This document shows, piece by piece, positions 3,868-36,740 of a DNA stretch of 64,000 nucleotides. The DNA is from a virus. The notes under the pieces were generated by a model. The model worked only from the letters and a program-made list of their open reading frames with translations, did no database searches and had not been told where the DNA came from. Position 1 is the stretch's first letter. The number at the start of each line of letters is the position of its first letter. The position numbers and the translations under genes are program-made. The DNA lies in the IMG/VR virus record IMGVR_UViG_3300030060_004838, positions 1 to 64,000 of that record. One strand, written 5' to 3'.

Positions 3868-5511
3868 TTAACCAACTCGTCTTTCTGTTCTTCTATCAAC
3901 ATTATTATTTGCTGCTTCTTTAGGTAATCCTGTATTTCTTTTAGGTGGTCCAACACTCATAGATGGTTTATTTCTTGTTGCTGGTGCTTTTGCGCCACCT
4001 TGTTGTCCTAATAATTGTTGTTCTTGTAATTGACCTAATTGACTTGCATCTATATCTGTTCCCGCATATGGGTCAGTTTCTAATTTTTTATTGGATTTCA
4101 TATTACCCATTTCACCTTCTTCTTTTTTAGGTGGTGGTTTAGAGTATATGAAATTACCATCTTCATCCATATCTACTTCAAATCCTAAGTTTTTAATTTG
4201 AGTAGCAAGGTTGATTTCAATTTCTCTCCTTCTTAATTCTGCTACATTGTCTTCTTCTTCTGAACGCAGTAATTTTAAATCCCAATCTGTAATACCAAAC
4301 TGTCTTAAAAGGAATGGGAATAAGTATTGATTATATACATTTTGTGCTAATTCTACTGAACGATTAGTTACAAGTATTTGCATACCTTCGTTATTTAGAC
4401 CACCGCTTGTAGAAGTATCTCCTTGAAATATTTTACTTACTCCGTAGAAAGCACCAATCCTATCTCTTAAATCATCCTTTACATTTATGTAATCCATTTC
4501 TTTTAGAGTATTCATAAACTGTACCCATTCTATACTTCCCTTATTTCCACCTTCAGTTTCAATACCCATAATAGGAATATAGTGTGGGTCTTTTTCTAAT
4601 TTTTCTTTAACACCTTTCCAATACTTTACAAGTGATTCCATGTTATTTGTTTGTACTGCAAGAATACCTCTTGGTGCTCTTGCTTTTGTATAAGATGTAT
4701 TGATATAATTTTCCATAGCAATCAATGTAGTAATATGACTCCATAATGTTAGTATTGGTGAAAAGCCATATAATCTTGATGGGTTATATTTACTCAAATG
4801 CATAACTTCTCCTTCTACAAAGTATTGGTCTTTTCCATGCACTCTATTAATATATACGACAGGTTGTAATTTACTACCACAATGAGGACATGGATTAGTA
4901 CAGTCATCATCATAAATATCTCTATGTGTTATACAAGTATAATGTGCTTCGCCTCTATCTCCTTCTTCATCAACATCAATATACATTGTTAATGGGTCGC
5001 CTCTATAAACTTCTTTAATTTTGTGTAGGGCTACATTACCTTGATTATCTAAATAATATTCTTTAACTAATACTAAGTAAGCATCATCAGCAATATTTAA
5101 ATCAGATTCTAATTCTTTTAATACATCAATAAATTTTTGTTCTGAACGATTTACATAACCCTCAAAGAATTTTTTAGCATAAAGCATTTGTTCGTTAGAT
5201 GGACTTCTTAATTTTTTACTACCACAATTTCTACAAACATCTGTTTCCTTTTCATGTGTTGTTCCACAATCTTCACAGATTTTATAGAATGCTTTTTCCC
5301 ACTCATAGCCTCTCCTGAATATTTCTGTTTTTAATTGAGTAATACAAGTTCTAACAATTGTAGATTGATTTGCTACATCGTATAATACAGGTCCAATAAT
5401 ATGTTGAACATTTCTTTTTTCCTGTATTCCTAAATTATAAACTTCTTTAGCAAGTGGTGTTGGAGTTTTTCTCCTAACAAACTTTCCTAAATAATCTCTA
5501 AGACCCATCAA
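3868..5511 (-). CDS. Portal protein with two zinc-ribbon insertions
   Basis: 547 aa near terL; portal-like segments (DLNIADDAY, YGFSPI, IGAFYGVS); CEDCG..CRNCG and CITH..CPHCG inserts. Confidence 0.85.
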   Translation of the reverse strand: MMGLRDYLGKFVRRKTPTPLAKEVYNLGIQEKRNVQHIIGPVLYDVANQSTIVRTCITQLKTEIFRRGYEWEKAFYKICEDCGTTHEKETDVCRNCGSKKLRSPSNEQMLYAKKFFEGYVNRSEQKFIDVLKELESDLNIADDAYLVLVKEYYLDNQGNVALHKIKEVYRGDPLTMYIDVDEEGDRGEAHYTCITHRDIYDDDCTNPCPHCGSKLQPVVYINRVHGKDQYFVEGEVMHLSKYNPSRLYGFSPILTLWSHITTLIAMENYINTSYTKARAPRGILAVQTNNMESLVKYWKGVKEKLEKDPHYIPIMGIETEGGNKGSIEWVQFMNTLKEMDYINVKDDLRDRIGAFYGVSKIFQGDTSTSGGLNNEGMQILVTNRSVELAQNVYNQYLFPFLLRQFGITDWDLKLLRSEEEDNVAELRRREIEINLATQIKNLGFEVDMDEDGNFIYSKPPPKKEEGEMGNMKSNKKLETDPYAGTDIDASQLGQLQEQQLLGQQGGAKAPATRNKPSMSVGPPKRNTGLPKEAANNNVDRRTERRVG

Positions 5512-30911: not shown

Positions 30912-31083
30912 AATATCCCTTAGTAAAGCATTAAACGATATTTACTATTTAATTATATGGCAAAATAACTTGTGGTATAAAAATATACCAGACTCTTTTT
31001 TCAAAAAATGGCCGGAAATTTTTTTGCTATTAGCGAAAATTTTTTTTTTGAATTAAATCTATTTCCAGAATAAGAATTTGTAT

Positions 31084-31446
31084 TTAATTGTACATATTAA
31101 AATTAGAATCGTCATCTTTCTTTGATTTTGACATCATTTCTTTCATTTGTTTAACAACATCCTTTTCAAACTGTGAATTTGTATCACTTTCTTCATGTAT
31201 ATCTGCAAAATAGTTAATTTTCTTGTTATATTCTCGTATTATACTAACAAATTCCTCACGCAAGTCTTCATAAAACTGTTGTATCTGTTCTTTAAATTTA
31301 TCAGGTACAGGTGCATGTTTAGAATAGAATTGATAGAAATCATGCCAATTAGCGAAATGATTCTCGAGGTTTTTCATGATATTTTCTAAGTCTTTGTTAG
31401 ATTTGTCTTCTTTTTCGTTATTGTTAAAGTAAAAGTTGAATACCAT
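31084..31446 (-). CDS. Hypothetical protein
   Basis: 120-aa ORF; its start codon lies inside a degenerate ACCATGTGGT site. Confidence 0.55.
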   Translation of the reverse strand: MVFNFYFNNNEKEDKSNKDLENIMKNLENHFANWHDFYQFYSKHAPVPDKFKEQIQQFYEDLREEFVSIIREYNKKINYFADIHEESDTNSQFEKDVVKQMKEMMSKSKKDDDSNFNMYN

Positions 31447-31668
31447 GTGGTTATCCTCATTACAAGTAGGATAAGTAGAGGGTTATAACTGTATGTATTG
31501 GATTATTTGTATCATTTTGTAGGATATGCGAATTTACTTTAACATAATGTGCAAAAAATGTATTTTTATGGTGCTACAAAGGCGTTTTTATGTAGAGGGT
31601 GTTTTTAATGTCGCCCACAAAAAAGAATTAAAATCAATTAAAAAAAATTTAGGAACCTTCAAAGTAGA

Positions 31669-31678
31669 ACCATATGGA
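31669..31678. repeat. ACCATATGG palindrome, site 1
   Basis: ACCATATGGA preceded by CTTCAAAGTAGA. Confidence 0.85.
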
Positions 31679-31749
31679 TATAGAATGAATCTGAAACTAA
31701 AAAGAACCCTCCGCCATGAGAGATGATGACGAATGAACCTGCACACAGA

Positions 31750-31778
31750 ACCATATGGATTGAAACTTTGTGGCATCC
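31750..31778. repeat. ACCATATGG palindrome, site 2, with right hairpin
   Basis: ACCATATGGA, then GGAT-tgaaactttgtggc-ATCC. Confidence 0.85.
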
Positions 31779-31817
31779 TTAGTAATAGAACGAACACCTA
31801 TTATATGGTGAATTGTA

Positions 31818-32060
31818 ATGGTAAAACAACAATGCAAACTAACAGGCAAGATGGTAGAACGCAAAGAGATTAACCAAAATGGTTATTCAAAACTGCATTA
31901 TAGCGAGTATCAGAAAATGAGAAACTACGCTAAGAAGCAATTGAATCAAACATTTGGTATCGCTGATTATAGAAAAGTCATGGGCTTTGAAGTAGTTAGT
32001 CGCAAATCTCTATCAGAAGAATTGAAAACAAAAGTGAGAGTGTATTTCCATGACGAATGA
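31818..32060 (+). CDS. Hypothetical early-region protein
   Basis: 80 aa, TATTATATGGTGA leader. Confidence 0.65.
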   Translation: MVKQQCKLTGKMVERKEINQNGYSKLHYSEYQKMRNYAKKQLNQTFGIADYRKVMGFEVVSRKSLSEELKTKVRVYFHDE

Positions 32061-32266
32061 AGGACTTTAGTAAATTAACATTTGATGCTATGATTTCAGC
32101 ATTAATGAATGTAGATGACCAATTTCAGCAATTTGATGACATTTCTATTAATGTCAAGCAAGGCGGCATTCAATTAAGAATGAAGAAGAATTGGAAGGGC
32201 GTTTCTATGAGTTTGAAAAACGAGGAACGACTAAGAAGGCATGAAGAAAGCATGTCGGAATACTGA
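32057..32266 (+). CDS. Hypothetical early-region protein
   Basis: 69 aa, ATGA-coupled. Confidence 0.6.
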   Translation: MKDFSKLTFDAMISALMNVDDQFQQFDDISINVKQGGIQLRMKKNWKGVSMSLKNEERLRRHEESMSEY

Positions 32267-32292
32267 TTAAAATCAGGTAAGTTTGGAAAATT

Positions 32293-32337
32293 GAGGGATT
32301 TTGGGGCTTTTCGGAGTCCTGAAATCTCTCTTTTTTT
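32293..32337 (+). terminator. Hairpin plus T-tract terminator
   Basis: GAGGGATTTTGGGGCTT-TTCG-GAGTCCTGAAATCTCTC followed by T7. Confidence 0.65.
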
Positions 32338-32375
32338 AGGGTGCGTCATTTCCACAAATTTACAATTTAATACTT

Positions 32376-32596
32376 ACCATATGGTAGGCGATAGCACATT
32401 CTACCGCAGGAGGGATAATAAGAATGTTTGATTGTGATGAGTGATGTTAGTTTATTTTCTTATTACCATATGGTTCATGCGTTAGCATATGATGAACCGC
32501 AGGGGGGATAACAGAATGTTCTTTGACGATGACGAGTGATTACATCAGTTAAGAACATTTTAATCTGTTACCATATGGTAATGCTTTGCAATTACC
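32376..32596. repeat. Tandem structured repeat containing ACCATATGGT sites 3-5
   Basis: Cores at 32376, 32465 and 32570; two ~90-105-nt units with covarying hairpins and a shared CCGCAGG.GGGATAA..AGAATGTT linker. Confidence 0.85.
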
Positions 32597-32672
32597 TTAG
32601 ATTTTTCAAAAATGGTATTTTTTATTTTCCTGCATTGGAAAAAAATACCAAAAAACCAAATATATCAAGATA

Positions 32673-32855
32673 CTAAAAATGGAAAGAAACTCCCCAATAA
32701 TGTTCTATTGCGCCTCTAAATTTATCTTCATTAAATCTCTCATTATCCTCTTTGAAAAATTGACAAAACGAATTTATCGTATATTCATCTATTTTCAAAT
32801 CTCCAAATAAACGAGCCACTATTTCATAATGTCTTTGTTGAAATTTAGGATTCAT
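32673..32855 (-). CDS. Small hypothetical protein
   Basis: 60 aa; FQQRHYEIVA..F..DNERFNEDKF looks like a common small phage protein motif. Confidence 0.6.
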   Translation of the reverse strand: MNPKFQQRHYEIVARLFGDLKIDEYTINSFCQFFKEDNERFNEDKFRGAIEHYWGVSFHF

Positions 32856-33111
32856 TTAAATTCCACCCCCTATAAAATGGATAATCAGGTAAGTGTCTAC
32901 AAATTTGATTAAATGCTACACAATACATATCTAATGTTTCATAAAATGATGGGTGGTCATCTTCTTCATAAATTTCTTCCATTTGATGAATTAGGAATCT
33001 AACAGTCATAAGTATATCTGTAATTTCATCATTTGTGATATTATCAGCATACCATTGTTTTATCATCTTCAATCTTTTTTCTGTAAATTTTACCATAATA
33101 TCAAGCCTCAA
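32845..33111 (-). CDS. Hypothetical protein
   Basis: 88-aa ORF in a four-gene minus-strand cluster. Confidence 0.6.
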   Translation of the reverse strand: MRLDIMVKFTEKRLKMIKQWYADNITNDEITDILMTVRFLIHQMEEIYEEDDHPSFYETLDMYCVAFNQICRHLPDYPFYRGWNLNES

Positions 33112-33415
33112 ATGTAAATATTTTTCTAATATTTTCTAATTCTTCTTTTACAGGTTTTGCACAACATTCACAATCCCAATCTTCAAGATTACTTAGAATA
33201 TATAGGATTTGTGTAGAAACTCCTTCACTTCCATATTCCATCCATGCTCTATCCATAGCCAAAAAATATGATATTGCATATTCTCGGTATGTTGGTTTTT
33301 TATCGTTATAGCAATTCTTTGCACTTATTACTTTGAATCTTAGGCTGTATAATTTTCTAAATATTTCTTCCGTTGGCATTTTACTCATCTCCATTAACTT
33401 CATTTGTTTTCTCAA
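33101..33415 (-). CDS. Hypothetical protein
   Basis: YAISY..A...YG.EG..QILYILSNL..W motif. Confidence 0.6.
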   Translation of the reverse strand: MRKQMKLMEMSKMPTEEIFRKLYSLRFKVISAKNCYNDKKPTYREYAISYFLAMDRAWMEYGSEGVSTQILYILSNLEDWDCECCAKPVKEELENIRKIFTFEA

Positions 33416-33590
33416 TTACTGCTTGAATTAGTGCTTCCATATTTTCTTTCACTTCATCAATTGTATCACCTTGCACTCTTGCGCTTTCACAAATCCAATT
33501 TTTATATCGGTCTTGTTTTAGTTTAACAACAAAATTTTTCTGCACAGGCTCGCTTTTTTCTTCTTCTAAATTCTTTTTCCAGAATGGCAT
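33381..33590 (-). CDS. Small protein, possibly HicB-N-like
   Basis: VQGDTIDEVKENMEALI resembles the HicB QG.T.EE..N..EA motif; ATTATGTGGTGA leader. Confidence 0.45.
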   Translation of the reverse strand: MPFWKKNLEEEKSEPVQKNFVVKLKQDRYKNWICESARVQGDTIDEVKENMEALIQAVIEKTNEVNGDE

Positions 33591-33636
33591 ATTTTTTCAC
33601 CACATAATTATATTTTGAACGGTTTATGGTTCGTGC

Positions 33637-33676
33637 TTCAAAGTAGCCTTACCATATGGTTCTGCTTTGAAGAACC
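33637..33676. repeat. ACCATATGGT site 6
   Basis: Core 33651-33660; CTTCAAAG..CTTTGAAG dyad; GGTTCT-gctttga-AGAACC hairpin. Confidence 0.85.
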
Positions 33677-33863
33677 TTAAAAAATTAAAAAAAATAAAAT
33701 TTTAAAAAATATTTTTTTGGTGAAGGAAAAAATAATTAAAAACCTTGATTTTTTTTGACAAGAAAAATTCTAAAAACTTGTGGCAATTTTTTGTGTGATT
33801 GCCAAATCAATATCTACGGGCTTCTCAAAATATTTGATGTATCTAAAGATTCAATCTTCATCT

Positions 33864-34499
33864 TCAATTAGAAGATTCATCAGATTCACCTTCGTCATTA
33901 TCAGATTCTGTTGCATTTTCTTCTGATGGTGGTGGCGCAATTGTCATTCCATCTTCAAGAGAAAAGTTTCCATCCCAACGACCATCATTGAAATATTTTG
34001 TAAATCTTTGATTTACTGCTACTCCACGACCATCTCCGAAATCTAAACCGTTCTCAAATGGTGAACCACCAACCTCTTTATTTCTATCAGAAATTACAGA
34101 TGTCATTTGGATAATCGGATTTGAATTCCAAAATTCTGCGTATGCTTCTGCAACCAATTTCTTTAGAGTTTTCAAACTTGCTTGAGCGTGTGCTGGCAAA
34201 TTTGATTCTTTTCCAATTGAAACAGGCCAATCCATAGCCAATTTTCCATCTGTTTTTTCTACTGTCCAATCTCGACCTTCAATGAGGATTTGATTCCATA
34301 AATTCTTCCGCTTTTCTGCATTTCTGTTTCCTCTACGGATATTCATGTTAATCAATTCAACAGCATCAATAATATCATCTGAAGAATTCAAAAATTCTTG
34401 ATTACCTTCAAGGCTCAAGAAATCCTCAATTCTTCCAATTCTCTTATTCCATGCTTCATCTGTCATTGACAAATCTTTTTCTTTCTTTTCTTTCGGCAT
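33864..34499 (-). CDS. Hypothetical protein, paralog of 34656-35135
   Basis: 211 aa with an acidic tail; collinear motifs shared with the divergent neighbour. Confidence 0.7.
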   Translation of the reverse strand: MPKEKKEKDLSMTDEAWNKRIGRIEDFLSLEGNQEFLNSSDDIIDAVELINMNIRRGNRNAEKRKNLWNQILIEGRDWTVEKTDGKLAMDWPVSIGKESNLPAHAQASLKTLKKLVAEAYAEFWNSNPIIQMTSVISDRNKEVGGSPFENGLDFGDGRGVAVNQRFTKYFNDGRWDGNFSLEDGMTIAPPPSEENATESDNDEGESDESSN

Positions 34500-34572
34500 A
34501 TTTATTTCTCCTTATTTTTTTTCTGTCGCCAATATTTTTTGGCGTAGAATATCATCATTTTTTATTATTCAA

Positions 34573-34616
34573 GGTAATTCAAAGTATTACCATATGGTTG
34601 CAACTTTGTGAAAACC
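34573..34616. repeat. ACCATATGGT site 7 (full double-hairpin form)
   Basis: GGTAAT-tcaaagt-ATTACC ATAT GGTT-gcaactttgtgaa-AACC. Confidence 0.88.
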
Positions 34617-34655
34617 CTATACCTGAAACCCTCTTTTATTATGTGGTGAAAACCA

Positions 34656-35135
34656 ATGAGTAAAGAAAAATACGAAACTGATGAGGGCTATGAAGCATTT
34701 GTAGCACCTCTTGAAGAATATATGAAGAAGAACAAAGCCAAAGATGCTGAAATGACAGATGCCTATGAGTATGCTGTGAACACCATCAAAAGAGGTCGAA
34801 AGTTTGCTAACAAAAGAAAAAGATGTTTTGACAGTCTGTATGATGAGTGGAACCATCTTAATTTTGAAGGTTGGCCTTTGAAGAAGTTAGATGATGAAAC
34901 CACTAAGGAAATTCAAAAGATGGCTGATGATATGGACACACCAAATGAAGATTATTGGAATGCCCTACCTATCAAACCTACATTTAAGGTCAAAGGTAAG
35001 GAATACATTGATGCTGATGGCAAATCCTTTGCTAAGAGGATGAATGAATCACTTGTGAAGAAATGGACTGTTCACGCCAAAGAGAACGGTTCACTTTGGA
35101 AGTCCCAAGATGATATACCCACCCGAGAGGCTTGA
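34656..35135 (+). CDS. Hypothetical protein, paralog of 33864-34499
   Basis: 159 aa, TATTATGTGGTGA leader. Confidence 0.7.
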   Translation: MSKEKYETDEGYEAFVAPLEEYMKKNKAKDAEMTDAYEYAVNTIKRGRKFANKRKRCFDSLYDEWNHLNFEGWPLKKLDDETTKEIQKMADDMDTPNEDYWNALPIKPTFKVKGKEYIDADGKSFAKRMNESLVKKWTVHAKENGSLWKSQDDIPTREA

Positions 35136-35290
35136 ATATGTTTGACGATGATGAATGATTGACAAAAATTGACCCCTAATTTTGCCCATACCCCATGCTG
35201 TTTTGGTGATTCAGCACAAAAAAAATCACCACCCTTCGGGGTTTCTTACCACTATTCAAAGAATCGTTTTTACAATGTTTATTGTTAGTA

Positions 35291-35315
35291 ACCATATGGT
35301 TGTAATTTTTACACC
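35291..35315. repeat. ACCATATGGT site 8
   Basis: Core 35291-35300; GG(T)TGTAA-ttt-TTACACC hairpin. Confidence 0.8.
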
Positions 35316-35449
35316 CTGAAAAAAATAAAAAAAATAAAAAAGGTGGTAGAGAAATCATTTAAGATTTTTTTAAAATATCGGGGATGATATTTATGCATGA
35401 TAATATGATACAACAAACAAAGAACCAATTAAGAAACTCTACCATGAGT

Positions 35450-35800
35450 TATTTGTTGTAAAAGGGTGTGGGCAGGATTAGGTCGGTTAAACCATAACTT
35501 ACCTGCAAATTTTCACGGAAACACCTGCTTTTATTCTTGATTTGCAAATAAAATCGGCCGCTACTTCTAACTTCCCCACTTGAGCGTTTGTTCTCAAATG
35601 TTCCCACAGACAATTCGCTAAAACTGTTCACGCTATTAAATCGTTCACAAATGCAGCCTTTGATTATTACGCCACTCCTTCTCGATGGAAAGATTAATTG
35701 CATTTATCCGCTAAGAAAATCTCGGGAGGAATACCTTAAAGTGTTCAATCTCTTTTTCAGTCACCACAATATCTTGACCCGCTAAAGCCAAGATGTAGAA
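35450..35800 (-). ncRNA. Candidate structured non-coding RNA
   Basis: GC-enriched, no convincing ORF, several hairpins, minus-strand TATAAA at 35810-35815. Confidence 0.35.
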
Positions 35801-35822
35801 TATGATTGATTTATAGCCGTAA

Positions 35823-35865
35823 GGTCATCACAAAGAGATTACCATATGGTTCTAAAACTTGTAGA
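35823..35865. repeat. ACCATATGGT site 9
   Basis: Core 35841-35850; GGTcATC-acaaaga-GATtACC left hairpin and TCTA..TAGA right stem. Confidence 0.85.
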
Positions 35866-35878
35866 TATTCGAGGCTAT

Positions 35879-36433
35879 CTTCATATGAAGGGGTCGGCAG
35901 GAGAGGGCTACCCCTTATAAGTGGGTCGGGGTCGGATTGGGTGTCAATAATTGACAGAATGTAGCAGATTATTTCAGATAATTTGTTTTATTTATGTAAT
36001 AATAACCAAAACAATATATAAACTATATCTAATAGATTCAATATATTATTATCTCTTTATTCTTCTTTATCTTTATTCAGTTAATAGAAGTAAGTCATTT
36101 TGTATTAGATAATTTTCCCGATGGGATTTCCCATCTTTTCCCATTCCTATGAGAAAACATTTTGTTTTAGATAATTATATTATCTTAATCATTATGTTTA
36201 TTTTAGTATCTTTTCCCCTTTTCCCTTTCCTTCCTTACTTACTTACCTTACTTCTCTCTCTATTTATGTATATATTTGTGTATATATGTGAGAGGGGTAA
36301 AGTGTGGGAAAAGTGGGATTATGGGAAAAGGTATCAAAATGTTTAAGAAAAAGCAATTATCTTATGCAAAATATTATCTCATACATTTTGTAGCATGGGA
36401 TAATGGGAAAAGCCTACATTTTGTATTAGATAA
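35879..36433. other. Candidate replication origin
   Basis: GGGTCGG repeats, AT-rich tract, three CATTTTGT[A/T]TTAGATAA direct repeats (36096, 36158, 36417), opposed TTTCCC/GGGAAA boxes, located at the strand switch. Confidence 0.5.
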
Positions 36434-36446
36434 AGTTTTGAATTAA

Positions 36447-36740
36447 ATGAAAAAGACTGAAGTTCTGGTGGACAGCATGGAAACAAAAAAGAAGATAAAA
36501 GAAACAATGGATGAAATTAGGGATTTCCTAATCCAAAAGAATGAACAATATGGCGATTCTGTGATGAACCCAATTAGGGTTTTTTCAAAAGCAGGAATTG
36601 ATGAAGGGTTAAGAATTAGAATTGATGACAAACTCAATAGATTAATGCAAGGTAATGATAGCATGGAATCTGATGAGGATGTTGTTAAAGATTTGATAGG
36701 TTATTTGACCCTACTATTAATTCAAATTAGGGAGGAATAA
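36447..36740 (+). CDS. DUF1599/Nmad1-like all-alpha NTP-pyrophosphatase-fold protein
   Basis: KNEQYGDS..IRIDDKLNRL..DVVKDLIGY. Confidence 0.7.
   Translation: MKKTEVLVDSMETKKKIKETMDEIRDFLIQKNEQYGDSVMNPIRVFSKAGIDEGLRIRIDDKLNRLMQGNDSMESDEDVVKDLIGYLTLLLIQIREE

Follow-up and report, generated by a model that had tools for sequence, protein, structure and literature searches.

Palindrome-hairpin elements as probable joints of self-promoted small-gene cassettes in a magrovirus-like virus of marine archaea

Nine palindromes in the strand-switch region of the virus record IMGVR_UViG_3300030060_004838 are probably the joints of self-promoted small-gene cassettes with host-type archaeal promoters. The analysis covered 64,000 nt of this record (the window), the full contig being 95,975 bp (~96 kb). 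This reading is based directly on the clustering of the palindromes, their family-wide conservation, hairpin covariation, a fixed spacing to gene starts and core-to-core rearrangements. From its sequence, the virus is a magrovirus-like archaeal tailed virus of the ocean: matches to its portal protein are confined to archaeal tailed viruses, the nearest relatives of its PolB are those of haloviruses, and the gene content and ~95-kb size of magroviruses agree with it (PMC5434244). Among the products of the structural arm are several large proteins of unknown function. The cassette row would fill the strand-switch (early/accessory) block of this genome.

The core, an 8-letter palindrome (CCATATGG), occurs nine times in the window against 0.67 expected (0/100 shuffles reach 9). 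All nine copies, which a preliminary description had listed and which were recovered at the same positions, lie within 31670-35849, and no further copy was found in the rest of the 95,975-bp contig. A covariance model (CM) scan likewise returned no element outside the cluster at E<0.3. Thus, the motif is clustered and not evenly spread through the genome (9/9 in 4.2 kb of the 96-kb contig). The core takes the form ACCATATGGT at seven sites and ACCATATGGA at two (31669, 31750). A degenerate copy that had also been proposed, CCATGTGG, is present at 31443 but is probably due to chance, since it extends over the ATG of ORF 31084-31446(-), recurs within a gene at 68685 and was missed by the CM. Relatives carry 5-11 cores each, nearly all in one cluster of 3.5-5.5 kb; one relative with 20 cores is a probable concatemer. 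The composite pattern was detected in at least 118 IMG/VR stretches, and the fetched loci contained 613 distinct cores in 1.1 Mb. It is essentially absent from cellular prokaryote genomes, where 596 Gb gave 14 composite matches, mostly single. Within the block, nearly every small-gene boundary has a palindrome and hairpin just upstream of a predicted archaeal promoter. A literature search found no paper describing such a palindrome-hairpin-promoter element.

The RCTTTG/CAAAG loops previously described as shared were confirmed at seven half-sites (31670-, 31751+, 32571+, 33652+/-, 34590+/- and 35842-) but not at 32377+ and 32466+, whose hairpins form a separate class (type B) with no CTTTG and with GNNA-like apical loops, followed by a Shine-Dalgarno (SD) sequence (GGAGG) and a micro-ORF. 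The sites are as follows.

31669..31678, unstranded: core 1 (ACCATATGGA); its minus side has a weak type-A element (GGTTCTACTTTGAAGGTTCC), then a T-run.
31646-31680, minus: CM match of core 1, 22.1 bits, facing ORF 31084-31446(-), whose start is 224 nt away.
31750..31785, plus: core 2 (ACCATATGGA), hairpin 31757-31778 (GGATTG..CATCC), TATA-like box 31777-31785; predicted TSS ~31807 (G of GGTGA), ATG of the 80-aa gene at 31818.
32376..32444, plus: core 3, type-B hairpin 32383-32405, GGAGGG, micro-ORF MFDCDE 32424-32444.
32333-32387, minus: CM match on the minus side of core 3, a degenerate type-A element.
32465..32539, plus: core 4, type-B hairpin 32472-32498, GGGGGG, micro-ORF MFFDDDE 32516-32539; this unit has three copies in the relative L005 and one in L006/L007.
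32570..32603, plus: core 5, type-A hairpin 32577-32596 (GGTAAT-GCTTTGC-ATTACC) and box, 37.2 bits; T-runs but no protein gene follow, and the micro-ORF array probably ends here.
33621..33683, two-sided: site 6, core 33651-33660, CM 46.4 and 17.8 bits. Plus side: hairpin 33658-33676 and box, no gene, abutting the T-run end of the incoming 211-aa gene. Minus side: hairpin 33653-33628, box 33629-21, predicted TSS ~33601 (G of GGTGA), ATG 33590.
34566..34623, two-sided, between divergent paralogs: site 7, core 34589-34598, CM 46.2 and 29.1 bits. Plus side: hairpin 34596-34616 and box, predicted TSS ~34645, ATG 34656 (159 aa). Minus side: hairpin 34591-34573 and box, predicted TSS ~34544, ATG 34499 (211 aa), with a 45-nt leader containing AAGGAG.
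35291..35322, unstranded: core 8; plus side with a hairpin without CTTTG (GGTTGTAATTTTTACACC), then A-runs, which on the other strand are the T-runs ending the minus-strand unit; CM 28.2 bits.
35816..35850, minus: core 9 (35841-50), hairpin 35843-35823, box 35824-16, predicted TSS ~35794, 25.3 bits; predicted to drive the 542-bp unit 35300-35841, of which cores 8 and 9 are the left and right joints and which would hold an 84-aa ORF without SD, or else an ncRNA.

All stems quoted in the preliminary description were found (GGTAG/CTACC, GGTTCAT/ATGAACC, GGTAAT/ATTACC, GGTTCT/AGAACC, GGTT/AACC and GGAT/ATCC), and their proposed covariation was borne out. Native arms paired far better than swapped, chimeric arms (-4.5 vs -1.6 kcal/mol, p 1e-63). 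Covariation was significant in a small set (z -7.3, 0/2000 permutations), among 366 distinct hairpins from relatives and in an ungapped 21-sequence alignment, in which 83.9% of cells were paired as compared with 72.6 +/- 2.2 after shuffling (0/500) and 33-48% in slid controls. Arm lengths were also correlated. When the tenth base of the core is A, as in the GGAT/ATCC stem with its T>A core, T precedes the closing CC in 7/8 cases (GGA..TCC compensation), and orthologous sites show compensatory changes (GGTTCT/AGAACC vs GGTTGT/ACAACC; GGTAAT/ATTACC vs GGTAAC/GTTACC). The loop-closing pairs were A:T 217, G:C 153, G:T 91 and A:C 23, and G-U pairs numbered 195 on the sense strand vs 93 on the antisense strand. 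That G:T is accepted and A:C avoided points to single-stranded folding of the CTTTG strand. Hairpins were equally good on sides without a protein gene and so are not purely a promoter accessory.

Each type-A hairpin closes in CC, and a TATA-like box (CC-YTA-N-A-W-W) follows at once. An ORF was found downstream of 51% of type-A sides vs 23% of other sides, with a sharp peak at 55-59 nt, and only 3% of those ORFs had an SD. The distance from CC peaked at 29-30 nt to the ATG and at 30-32 nt to the first base of an SD, and the position of the ATG followed that of the box rather than the core. The profile ahead of the ATG showed a pyrimidine at -1, AT-rich sequence at -28..-22 and CC at -30/-29. 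Genes starting 29-30 nt after CC with no SD imply that the mRNAs of relatives would be mostly leaderless. The leader ATTATRTGGTGA was shared by three sites (31751+, 33652- and 34590+), and in the three GGTGA genes of the window the first G lies at the same distance from CC as the ATG of relatives. These elements agree with the archaeal TATA, BRE and -10 WW scheme and with the definition of leaderless transcripts (PMC4983044). From this canonical BRE/TATA geometry, we infer host-type archaeal promoters and not N4-type ones, as well as use of the host machinery, the start positions being predicted from the spacing statistics. Relative to the predicted start, the hairpin would occupy ~-51..-29 and the palindrome ~-57..-50, centred at ~-53. 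In type-B units (cores 3 and 4), no TATA-like box follows the hairpin, and their promoters therefore fall outside this scheme. The central claim of the earlier account, a conserved hairpin-containing cis-element that is associated with gene starts on either strand and flanks blocks of small genes, holds; its suggestion of early promoters stands for archaeal BRE/TATA elements correctly spaced from leaderless ATGs or GGTGA, but not for the N4 type.

The promoter hairpins of N4 form on the template strand, with their centre ~12 nt upstream of the start, and are recognised by a giant virion RNAP. The three-base apex of the present hairpins and their position beside early-type genes, together with the large structural-arm proteins, would suit promoters of this kind read by a virion-delivered polymerase. 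Such a reading is very improbable, as the hairpin here is 25-30 nt upstream of the inferred start and not at -12, a canonical BRE/TATA lies between, and the folding strand is the non-template strand. No viral RNAP domain was detected, although the T7-type model matched no control genome either and is thus uninformative on absence. Searches with the Pfam TFIIB and Zn-ribbon models revealed no viral TFB, a proposed reader of the sites.

The hairpins could instead function in the RNA that each unit transcribes, as 5'-terminal stem-loops or operator hairpins, with starts at or before the core GG and ~50-nt leaders. Tolerance of G:U on the outward-reading strand, a conserved loop with covarying stems, as in protein-binding RNA hairpins, and the type-B hairpins with their GNNA-like loops and SD are in keeping with this. 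It is nonetheless quite unlikely, because one-sided sites lack a TATA-like signal ahead of the core, the ATG follows the box in position, the TATA spacing to leaderless ATGs is canonical with the SD beginning at the same distance, and no Rfam match was found. RNA-processing sites, also proposed, received no support. A start after the box leaves the hairpin outside the unit's own mRNA, yet the G:T asymmetry looks RNA-like and single-stranded.

In the preferred reading, that of self-promoted cassettes, the core (CCATATGG) would run, on the side facing a unit, directly into a site-specific inverted repeat whose first bases are the GG of the core, whose apex is a conserved R-C-TTT-G-Y and whose last bases are CC. 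The 3' arm of the repeat would sit in the BRE position, with the TATA-like box immediately after, and host RNA polymerase with TBP/TFB would start 29-31 nt past CC. In most relatives this start would be the A of the ATG, yielding leaderless mRNAs; in the present clade it would be the first G of GGTGA, yielding a 10-12 nt leader that opens with the Shine-Dalgarno. With starts so placed, the palindrome would be an untranscribed upstream element near -53, common to one or two divergent promoters. It is identical on both strands, would be the sole sequence common to all units, and is most likely read by a dimeric protein. The hairpin may act as DNA extruded upstream of the promoter, or alternatively in the RNA of transcripts arriving from the upstream unit, as an insulator comparable to the stem-loop of a promoter-early stem-loop (PeSL) cassette of T4-type phages.

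In archaea, activators including Ptr2 and GvpE work from sites directly ahead of the BRE, and divergent gvp promoters are both under GvpE. Compatible with the cassette reading, and a tenable if tentative proposal, is that the palindrome is an operator or upstream activating site through which a dimeric regulator, of virus or host, switches the whole early block; one central site would serve both divergent promoters, and shuffling would follow secondarily from the repetition of the site. Across 613 sites the perfect 8-bp dyad does not vary while its surroundings do, its position upstream of the BRE is fixed, and one-sided sites retain both palindrome halves. Against this, no DNA-binding protein was identified, absence of the composite motif from cellular genomes leaves no host regulon evident, and the covarying hairpin is left unexplained. 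The family most often found under these promoters had no match to a known fold.

Comparison with relatives shows three complete units that were inserted, deleted, or relocated and inverted, in each case from core to core.

31759..32465, unstranded: segment between cores 2 and 4 (promoter, 80-aa and 69-aa genes, terminator, first micro-ORF unit).
33660..34586, minus: 211-aa gene unit between cores 6 and 7.
35300..35841, minus: unit between cores 8 and 9.

The first is missing in L006/L007, which have a single core instead: window 30932-31758 matches L006 up to 5815, window 32465 onwards matches L006 from 5807, and L006/L007 homology ends inside core 2. The second is missing at the equivalent single core of L007 (8936), where homology ends at core 6 +5, and lies elsewhere in L006/L007 in the opposite orientation. 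The third is missing in L005, where a single core (5214) joins both flanks. Ends of homology blocks fell within 10 nt of a core in 8/30 cases vs 4% by chance (p 2e-5), although core breakpoints could partly reflect alignment anchoring on the sole conserved word. Homologous recombination of the ordinary kind fits poorly, because the identical stretch at the joints is only ~10-14 bp.

Since whole units were gained, lost, moved and flipped core to core, the earlier suggestion of cassette-shuffling recombination sites is upheld in outcome. Its attC-type mechanism is not: no integrase was found, each cassette appears to have its own promoter, and cassettes lie in both orientations. A dedicated site-specific system, in which a viral enzyme not recognised as a nuclease or recombinase would cleave or synapse the palindrome, aided by the twin hairpins, in integron-like exchange, is unlikely. 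It would account for exact core-to-core events including inversion, for a palindrome that permits either orientation, for hairpins kept even on gene-less sides and for the restriction of the element to viruses. Yet Pfam revealed no tyrosine integrase, LAGLIDADG_3 or Hjc, and no recombinase or nuclease able to act at the joints, and repeated promoters alone can yield the same pattern, as seen with the promoter-early stem-loops (PeSLs) of phages (PMC2839356). The GC skew reaches its minimum next to the cluster, which also borders an AT-rich repeat field (35.96-36.35 kb), as might be expected of signals for replication priming, packaging or ejection close to a genome end or origin. That the elements are such signals is hardly credible, given that they point both ways within the cluster at a fixed distance from gene starts and that the position of the cluster varies among permuted contigs; the ejection/packaging option of the preliminary description thus found no support.

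The best reading is that the cassettes would be analogous to the PeSLs of the T4-type phages RB49/phi1 (Arbiol et al. 2010, PMC2839356). In each case, a host-type early promoter and a stem-loop make up a small, repeated regulatory cassette that is concentrated in a block of small genes of unknown function, lies immediately upstream of them and marks where insertions, deletions and replacements between related viruses end. PeSLs differ in having a sigma-70 promoter, as opposed to an archaeal BRE/TATA with mostly leaderless genes; stem-loops in varied positions with G/C-rich stems, as opposed to a 3' arm fixed at the BRE and a conserved CTTTG apex; and no palindromic core, where here an invariant 8-10 bp palindrome would form the joint and serve two divergent promoters and inversions. 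Terminator activity and mini-circles have been shown for PeSLs (PMC2839356). Integron attC arrays resemble it in their small-gene units split by imperfect inverted repeats conserved more in structure than in sequence, in an apparent single folding strand and in gain or loss of units at the sites; they differ in their integrase and in R''/L''-L'/R' boxes with extrahelical bases, where this archaeal virus has an exact palindrome and self-promoted cassettes in both orientations. N4 virion-RNAP promoters share small DNA hairpins, a three-base loop and early genes, but here the hairpin is 25-50 nt upstream with a TATA box between, and no such polymerase was seen. Canonical archaeal promoters (e.g. 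Haloferax dRNA-seq, PMC4983044) share a box with its centre ~25 nt ahead of a purine start, a pyrimidine at -1, A-rich sequence at the BRE position, AT-rich sequence at -16..-10 and -7..-4, and a start codon at the predicted TSS. Unlike in those, the BRE position here is one arm of a covarying inverted repeat joined to an invariant palindrome. Among cellular archaeal promoters, we know of none with such an upstream architecture.

The preliminary description reported nine palindromes in the strand-switch region of the window, and their count, coordinates and clustering were borne out. Nine copies of CCATATGG lie in the window, at 31670, 31751, 32377, 32466, 32571, 33652, 34590, 35292 and 35842 (cores 1 to 9, left to right), compared with 0.67 copies expected from shuffled sequence; nine copies were reached in 0 of 100 shuffles. 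The genome-wide count was also nine, no further copy being found in the rest of the 95,975-bp contig. The palindrome extends to ACCATATGGT in seven cores and to ACCATATGGA in two. The cluster lies exactly at the switch of coding strand and GC skew, and every hit with E < 0.3 to a covariance model built from relatives fell within 31646-35865. A degenerate copy, CCATGTGG at 31443, did not survive scrutiny: a start codon overlaps it, a second copy lies within a gene at 68685, and the covariance model misses it. It is treated here as chance.

Six contigs recovered through a 211-aa protein encoded in the block (47-84% identity) carried 5-11 cores apiece, clustered in the same block. A composite pattern, ACCATATGGT-N3-8-CTTTG-N5-11-CCYTA, was present in at least 118 IMG/VR stretches, and among the matches listed the loci held 613 distinct cores in 1.1 Mb and 766 half-sites with a CTTTG hairpin. 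Complete relatives had one cluster each, of 6-10 cores in 3.5-5.5 kb. The small genes of the block had no Pfam or PHROG matches. Only 14 stretches with the composite pattern, 13 of them single, were found in 596 Gb of prokaryote genomes. Thus, the element is a hallmark of this virus group and not of cellular genomes. A host regulon was rejected because the composite motif is absent from cellular genomes apart from one probable mis-binned viral contig. That contig (NZ_NZTP01000027.1, 14.7 kb, "MAG: Altibacter sp."), assigned to a flavobacterium bin, carries four composite elements within 1.6 kb and is probably a magrovirus fragment.

Magroviruses are among the commonest viruses of uncultured marine group II archaea, and we know of no work on the control and diversification of their genes. 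By gene content and size, the present contig fits the description of this group (Magrovirales). Its portal protein matched archaeal tailed viruses only, namely Haloarcula viruses (29-30% identity) and a Methanomassiliicoccales virus, and the nearest relatives of its PolB were from haloarchaeal tailed viruses. Genes on the right arm are those for PolB, a class II RNR, ThiF, a clamp-loader-like AAA protein and an ATP-dependent ligase whose N-domain is of the archaeal/eukaryotic type; relatives that share the element measure 92-97 kb and are complete according to CheckV. Magroviruses are tailed viruses of marine group II archaea with ~100-kb genomes, a halovirus-like structural module and an archaeal-type replication module of PolB, clamp loader and ATP ligase, with RNR in group B (PMC5434244). 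The contig was assigned a CheckV completeness of 51%, compared with 100% for relatives of 92.8-96.8 kb, and is probably near complete since relatives of that size are rated complete. One 184.7-kb record of a relative has two core clusters ~94.4 kb apart and is probably a concatemer.

Two types of half-site, each being one flank of a core read outward, were distinguished in the window.

Half-sites of the window, by core position and side
31670-, 31751+, 32571+, 33652+/-, 34590+/- and 35842-: type A, CCATAT-GG-[arm]-R-C-TTT-G-Y-[arm']-CC-YTA-N-A, a CTTTG hairpin followed by a TATA-like box
32377+ and 32466+: type B, a different hairpin with GNNA-like apical loops, then GGAGG and a micro-ORF, M[FY](F)D(D/C)DE

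The proposal that these hairpins covary was upheld. Native arms paired better than site-swapped arms in a small set (z -7.3, 0 of 2000 permutations), and 366 distinct hairpins of relatives had a mean of -4.48 kcal/mol compared with -1.62 for length-matched chimeras (p 1.6e-63). In an ungapped alignment of 21 sequences, 83.9% of cells paired, compared with 72.6 +/- 2.2 when shuffled (0 of 500) and 33-48% with a slid partner, and each of three stem positions had 5-9 double changes. Hairpin arm lengths were correlated, and an orthologous site carried a compensatory change, from GGTTCT/AGAACC in the window to GGTTGT/ACAACC in the related locus L005. At 7 of the 8 sites with an A after GG, the CC was preceded by a T, which makes the tenth "palindrome" base part of the stem. 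RNAalifold on a MAFFT alignment of whole leaders, in which stems of unequal length were misaligned, returned core self-pairing only, and the chimera tests and ungapped seed were used instead. In Rfam searches the gathering score was reached by tRNA-Leu only, and 31400-36500 gave nothing meaningful at E<=1.

It is the CTTTG-bearing strand that folds. Loop-closing pairs were A:T in 217 hairpins, G:C in 153, G:T in 91 and A:C in 23, where independence predicts 118 G:T and 101 A:C; G-U pairs numbered 195 on the CTTTG strand and 93 on its complement. Among equal-arm stems the ratio of G:T to A:C was 34:10, compared with 1.6:1 in chimeras (p 0.03). The asymmetry in G:T pairs suggests a single-stranded form of the CTTTG strand. 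Hairpins were equally stable on sides without a protein gene and beside genes, which argues for a role beyond serving a protein-gene promoter.

The position of type-A half-sites relative to gene starts was fixed. An ATG-initiated ORF of at least 50 aa followed within 200 nt on 51% of type-A sides, with a sharp peak at 55-59 nt from the core, and on 23% of other sides, with no peak. Only 3% of genes in the peak had a Shine-Dalgarno (SD)-like word. When these genes were aligned at the ATG, position -1 was a pyrimidine in 97% and position -3 a purine; AT-rich stretches covered -7 to -4 and -16 to -10, an AT-rich box lay at -28 to -22, and CC stood at -30/-29. Counted from the hairpin-closing CC, the ATG lay most often 29-30 nt away (110 of 143 within 27-33), and with longer hairpins the ATG shifted together with the box (r 0.49). 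For SD-bearing genes, including the three GGTGA genes of the window, the first SD base lay 30-32 nt after the CC. The putative BRE/TATA geometry was consistent with leaderless ATGs or GGTGA in 143 + 40 units.

Archaeal TATA-to-start spacing is -26/-27. The type-A half-sites match this canonical geometry, with a putative TATA centred ~25-27 nt before a purine start at Y(-1)R(+1), the predicted start being the ATG or the start of the SD. Further shared features are a purine-rich BRE position, here the 3' arm of the covarying hairpin, which abuts the box; a -10 WW element; and a start at the start codon, as in leaderless mRNAs (promoter scheme and definition of leaderless mRNA in PMC4983044). From this geometry we infer starts by host RNA polymerase with TBP and TFB at ~31807, 33601, 34645 and 34544 in the window. 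Given these starts, the core (~-57 to -50) and hairpin (~-51 to -29) would be untranscribed upstream elements. Pfam TFIIB and Zn-ribbon models had no match; no TFIIB-like gene was detectable, and the viral TFB earlier named as a binding candidate was not found with these models. Nor was an RNA polymerase gene detectable with PF00623 or with PF00940, the latter being without a match in any control genome as well, and divergent polymerases would be missed by Pfam models.

Other placements of the start were weighed. Initiation at the core from an upstream TATA box was rejected because one-sided sites had no TATA-like signal upstream of the core, which argues against a start there. The core itself as TATA box, with a start at the box, gives the same geometry by symmetry; it is disfavored for type A, in which both ATG and SD keep TATA distance from the box, and is kept only as a possible explanation for type B. 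Type-B units have no box, and an unproven type-B promoter with the core as weak TATA and a start ~25 nt after the core centre would fit core 3. Pairing of the core with the ATTATRTGGTGA leader in RNA, hiding the SD, fits this clade, requires bulges or mismatches in the related loci L009 and L010, and is moot if the core is untranscribed; this idea was dropped. Sigma-70 promoters were not enriched (25 found, 28.3 expected). The earlier suggestion of early promoters was retained for putative host-type promoters, with BRE/TATA geometry at gene starts, and disfavored in its N4 form: the N4 hairpin is centred ~12 nt before the start on the template strand, whereas here 29-31 nt separate the end of the hairpin from the predicted start, and folding is on the non-template strand. 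The stretch upstream of an 855-aa gene (30912-31083) contains a GGTATA-TTTT-TATACC dyad and, ~50 nt ahead of the ATG, CCATATAA, which resembles half a core; this may be a different, possibly late, promoter type.

Comparison with related loci revealed three events running from core to core.

Core-to-core differences between the window and related loci
35300-35841, between cores 8 and 9: absent in L005, whose core at 5214 continues the left flank of core 8 and the right flank of core 9
31759-32465, between cores 2 and 4: absent in L006 and L007, where a single core joins the flanks; homology stops at core +3 and resumes at core -4
Unit of the 211-aa gene (33864-34499, -), between cores 6 and 7: missing at the matching single core of L007; homology stops at core +5 and resumes at core -6

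Flank sequences confirmed the single-core junction that replaces 35300-35841 in L005. The 211-aa unit is present elsewhere in L006 and L007, in opposite orientation, and micro-ORF units number two in the window, three in L005 and one in L006 and L007. Ends of homology blocks fell within 10 nt of a core centre in 8 of 30 cases, compared with 4% by chance (p 2e-5). Neither an even spread of the motif nor a lack of covariation in relatives was seen; clustering and covariation were found instead, with breakpoints enriched at cores. Each unit has its own box at a fixed distance, and units lie on both strands. The units are self-contained; the 542-bp unit between cores 8 and 9, for instance, runs core, T-runs (terminator), body, box, hairpin, core.

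The idea of recombination sites that shuffle cassettes held for the outcome, as core-to-core insertion, deletion and relocation with inversion, and was not supported for the integron attC mechanism. A nearby tyrosine integrase is a defining feature of attC systems, whereas the 96-kb contig had no PF00589 match at E<=1, the same model being positive in 14 of 14 control genomes. Integron cassettes are promoterless and read in one orientation from a common promoter, whereas here each unit has its own box and both strands are used. The Pfam models LAGLIDADG_3 and Hjc also had no match. We consider it unlikely that the palindrome and the hairpins on its two sides form a site dedicated to exchange, at which a viral or host protein would synapse or cut and thereby allow self-promoted cassettes to be swapped or inverted and to move between magroviruses infecting one cell; if they did, archaeal viruses would have a cassette system resembling integrons, with promoter and recombination site merged.

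Several other features of the block were recorded. The 542-bp cassette (35300-35841) has a higher GC content (~36%) and no Rfam match, and a part of it (35553-35722) is conserved in L009. Because its only ORF (84 aa) has neither an SD nor a leaderless fit, the cassette may be a non-coding RNA unit. The strongest intrinsic-terminator-like site of the block, a long hairpin (17 pairs) followed by T7 at 32293-32337, lies directly after a 69-aa gene, and T-runs ahead of most gene-less half-sites are consistent with oligo-T termination. At the cumulative GC-skew minimum, 35885-36350 carries G-rich GGGTCGG repeats (~35890-35935), also found after the last core in L005, L006 and L010, and then an AT-rich field with TTTCCC/GGGAAA inverted motifs; this region may be a replication origin.

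The largest family under these promoters is that of the 211-aa protein and its divergent paralog across core 7, a 159-aa protein (34656-35135, +), with 95 members in 64 loci among the matches listed and up to three copies per genome. The family was predicted confidently by AF2 as mostly helical (pLDDT 87.7). It had no Pfam, PHROG or PDB-sequence match and nothing useful in the ESM Atlas; a fold search gave no Foldseek hit at E<=0.001, and the best VIA hit (Z 7.1) was generic helical. SD-led micro-ORFs at 32424-32444, 32516-32539 and 35138-35158 encode MFDCDE, MFFDDDE and MFDDDE, and this acidic peptide is kept in relatives with synonymous changes (MFDDDE, MYCDDE, MFDEED, MYDDED, MFCDDD). At a further copy (31716-31736, MRDDDE) relatives have ATA for ATG. 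In place of the window's 80-aa gene, whose product ends HDE, L005 has a 13-aa ORF ending RDDDE.

Collectively, the cis-element is real, family-wide and apparently undescribed. The magrovirus papers examined make no mention of promoters, palindromes or intergenic motifs, and a literature search for the motif string returned cloning primers only. We take its architecture, conservation, hairpin constraint, fixed spacing to gene starts and core-to-core rearrangements as established, and think it probable, if by no means certain, that they reflect palindrome-jointed, self-promoted gene cassettes of an archaeal virus. Host RNA polymerase with TBP and TFB would start downstream of the box, leaving core and hairpin upstream and untranscribed. 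That the exact dyad is retained at hundreds of sites whose surroundings are otherwise unrelated suggests a dimeric protein as its reader, one that could act as an activator or repressor from ~-53 on one or two promoters, or as a recombination protein. Since the unit's own mRNA would start downstream, two candidates are left for the single-stranded hairpin: local DNA extrusion, in which the BRE arm would be buried, or RNA of transcripts from an upstream co-directional unit, in which the hairpin would serve as insulator or attenuator like the stem-loop of PeSLs, the promoter-early stem-loops of the T4-type phages RB49 and phi1.

The element provides a sequence-defined handle on the early or accessory promoters of these uncultured archaeal viruses and would, by extension, give the BRE, TATA and leaderless rules of its host. 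It marks where the units of mobile accessory genes begin and end, units that are likely to contain anti-defence and host-takeover genes, and its exact motif can be used to locate this virus group and its plastic block in metagenomes. Overall, what the preliminary description observed stands, and its interpretation is supported in part, for a promoter role and for the shuffling outcome; the N4 and attC mechanisms each lack defining features.

PeSLs combine a stem-loop with a host-type early promoter in plastic regions upstream of ORFans, and recombination between the repeats drives modular shuffling (PMC2839356); termination of incoming transcription by the stem-loop and excised mini-circles are further PeSL traits. 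They are the closest analogue, and the present cassettes may be described as PeSL-like. Similarities are a host-type promoter within each repeat, as deduced from sequence, a covarying stem-loop joined to it, concentration in a plastic block of small ORFans, and indels or replacements between relatives that end at repeats (three core-to-core events; 8 of 30 ends). In contrast to PeSLs, the predicted promoter is archaeal and mostly leaderless, and the hairpin has a fixed position and a conserved apex. The main difference is the invariant palindromic joint, able to serve divergent promoters and inversions. The element may be an archaeal-virus counterpart of PeSL- or integron-type modular shuffling.
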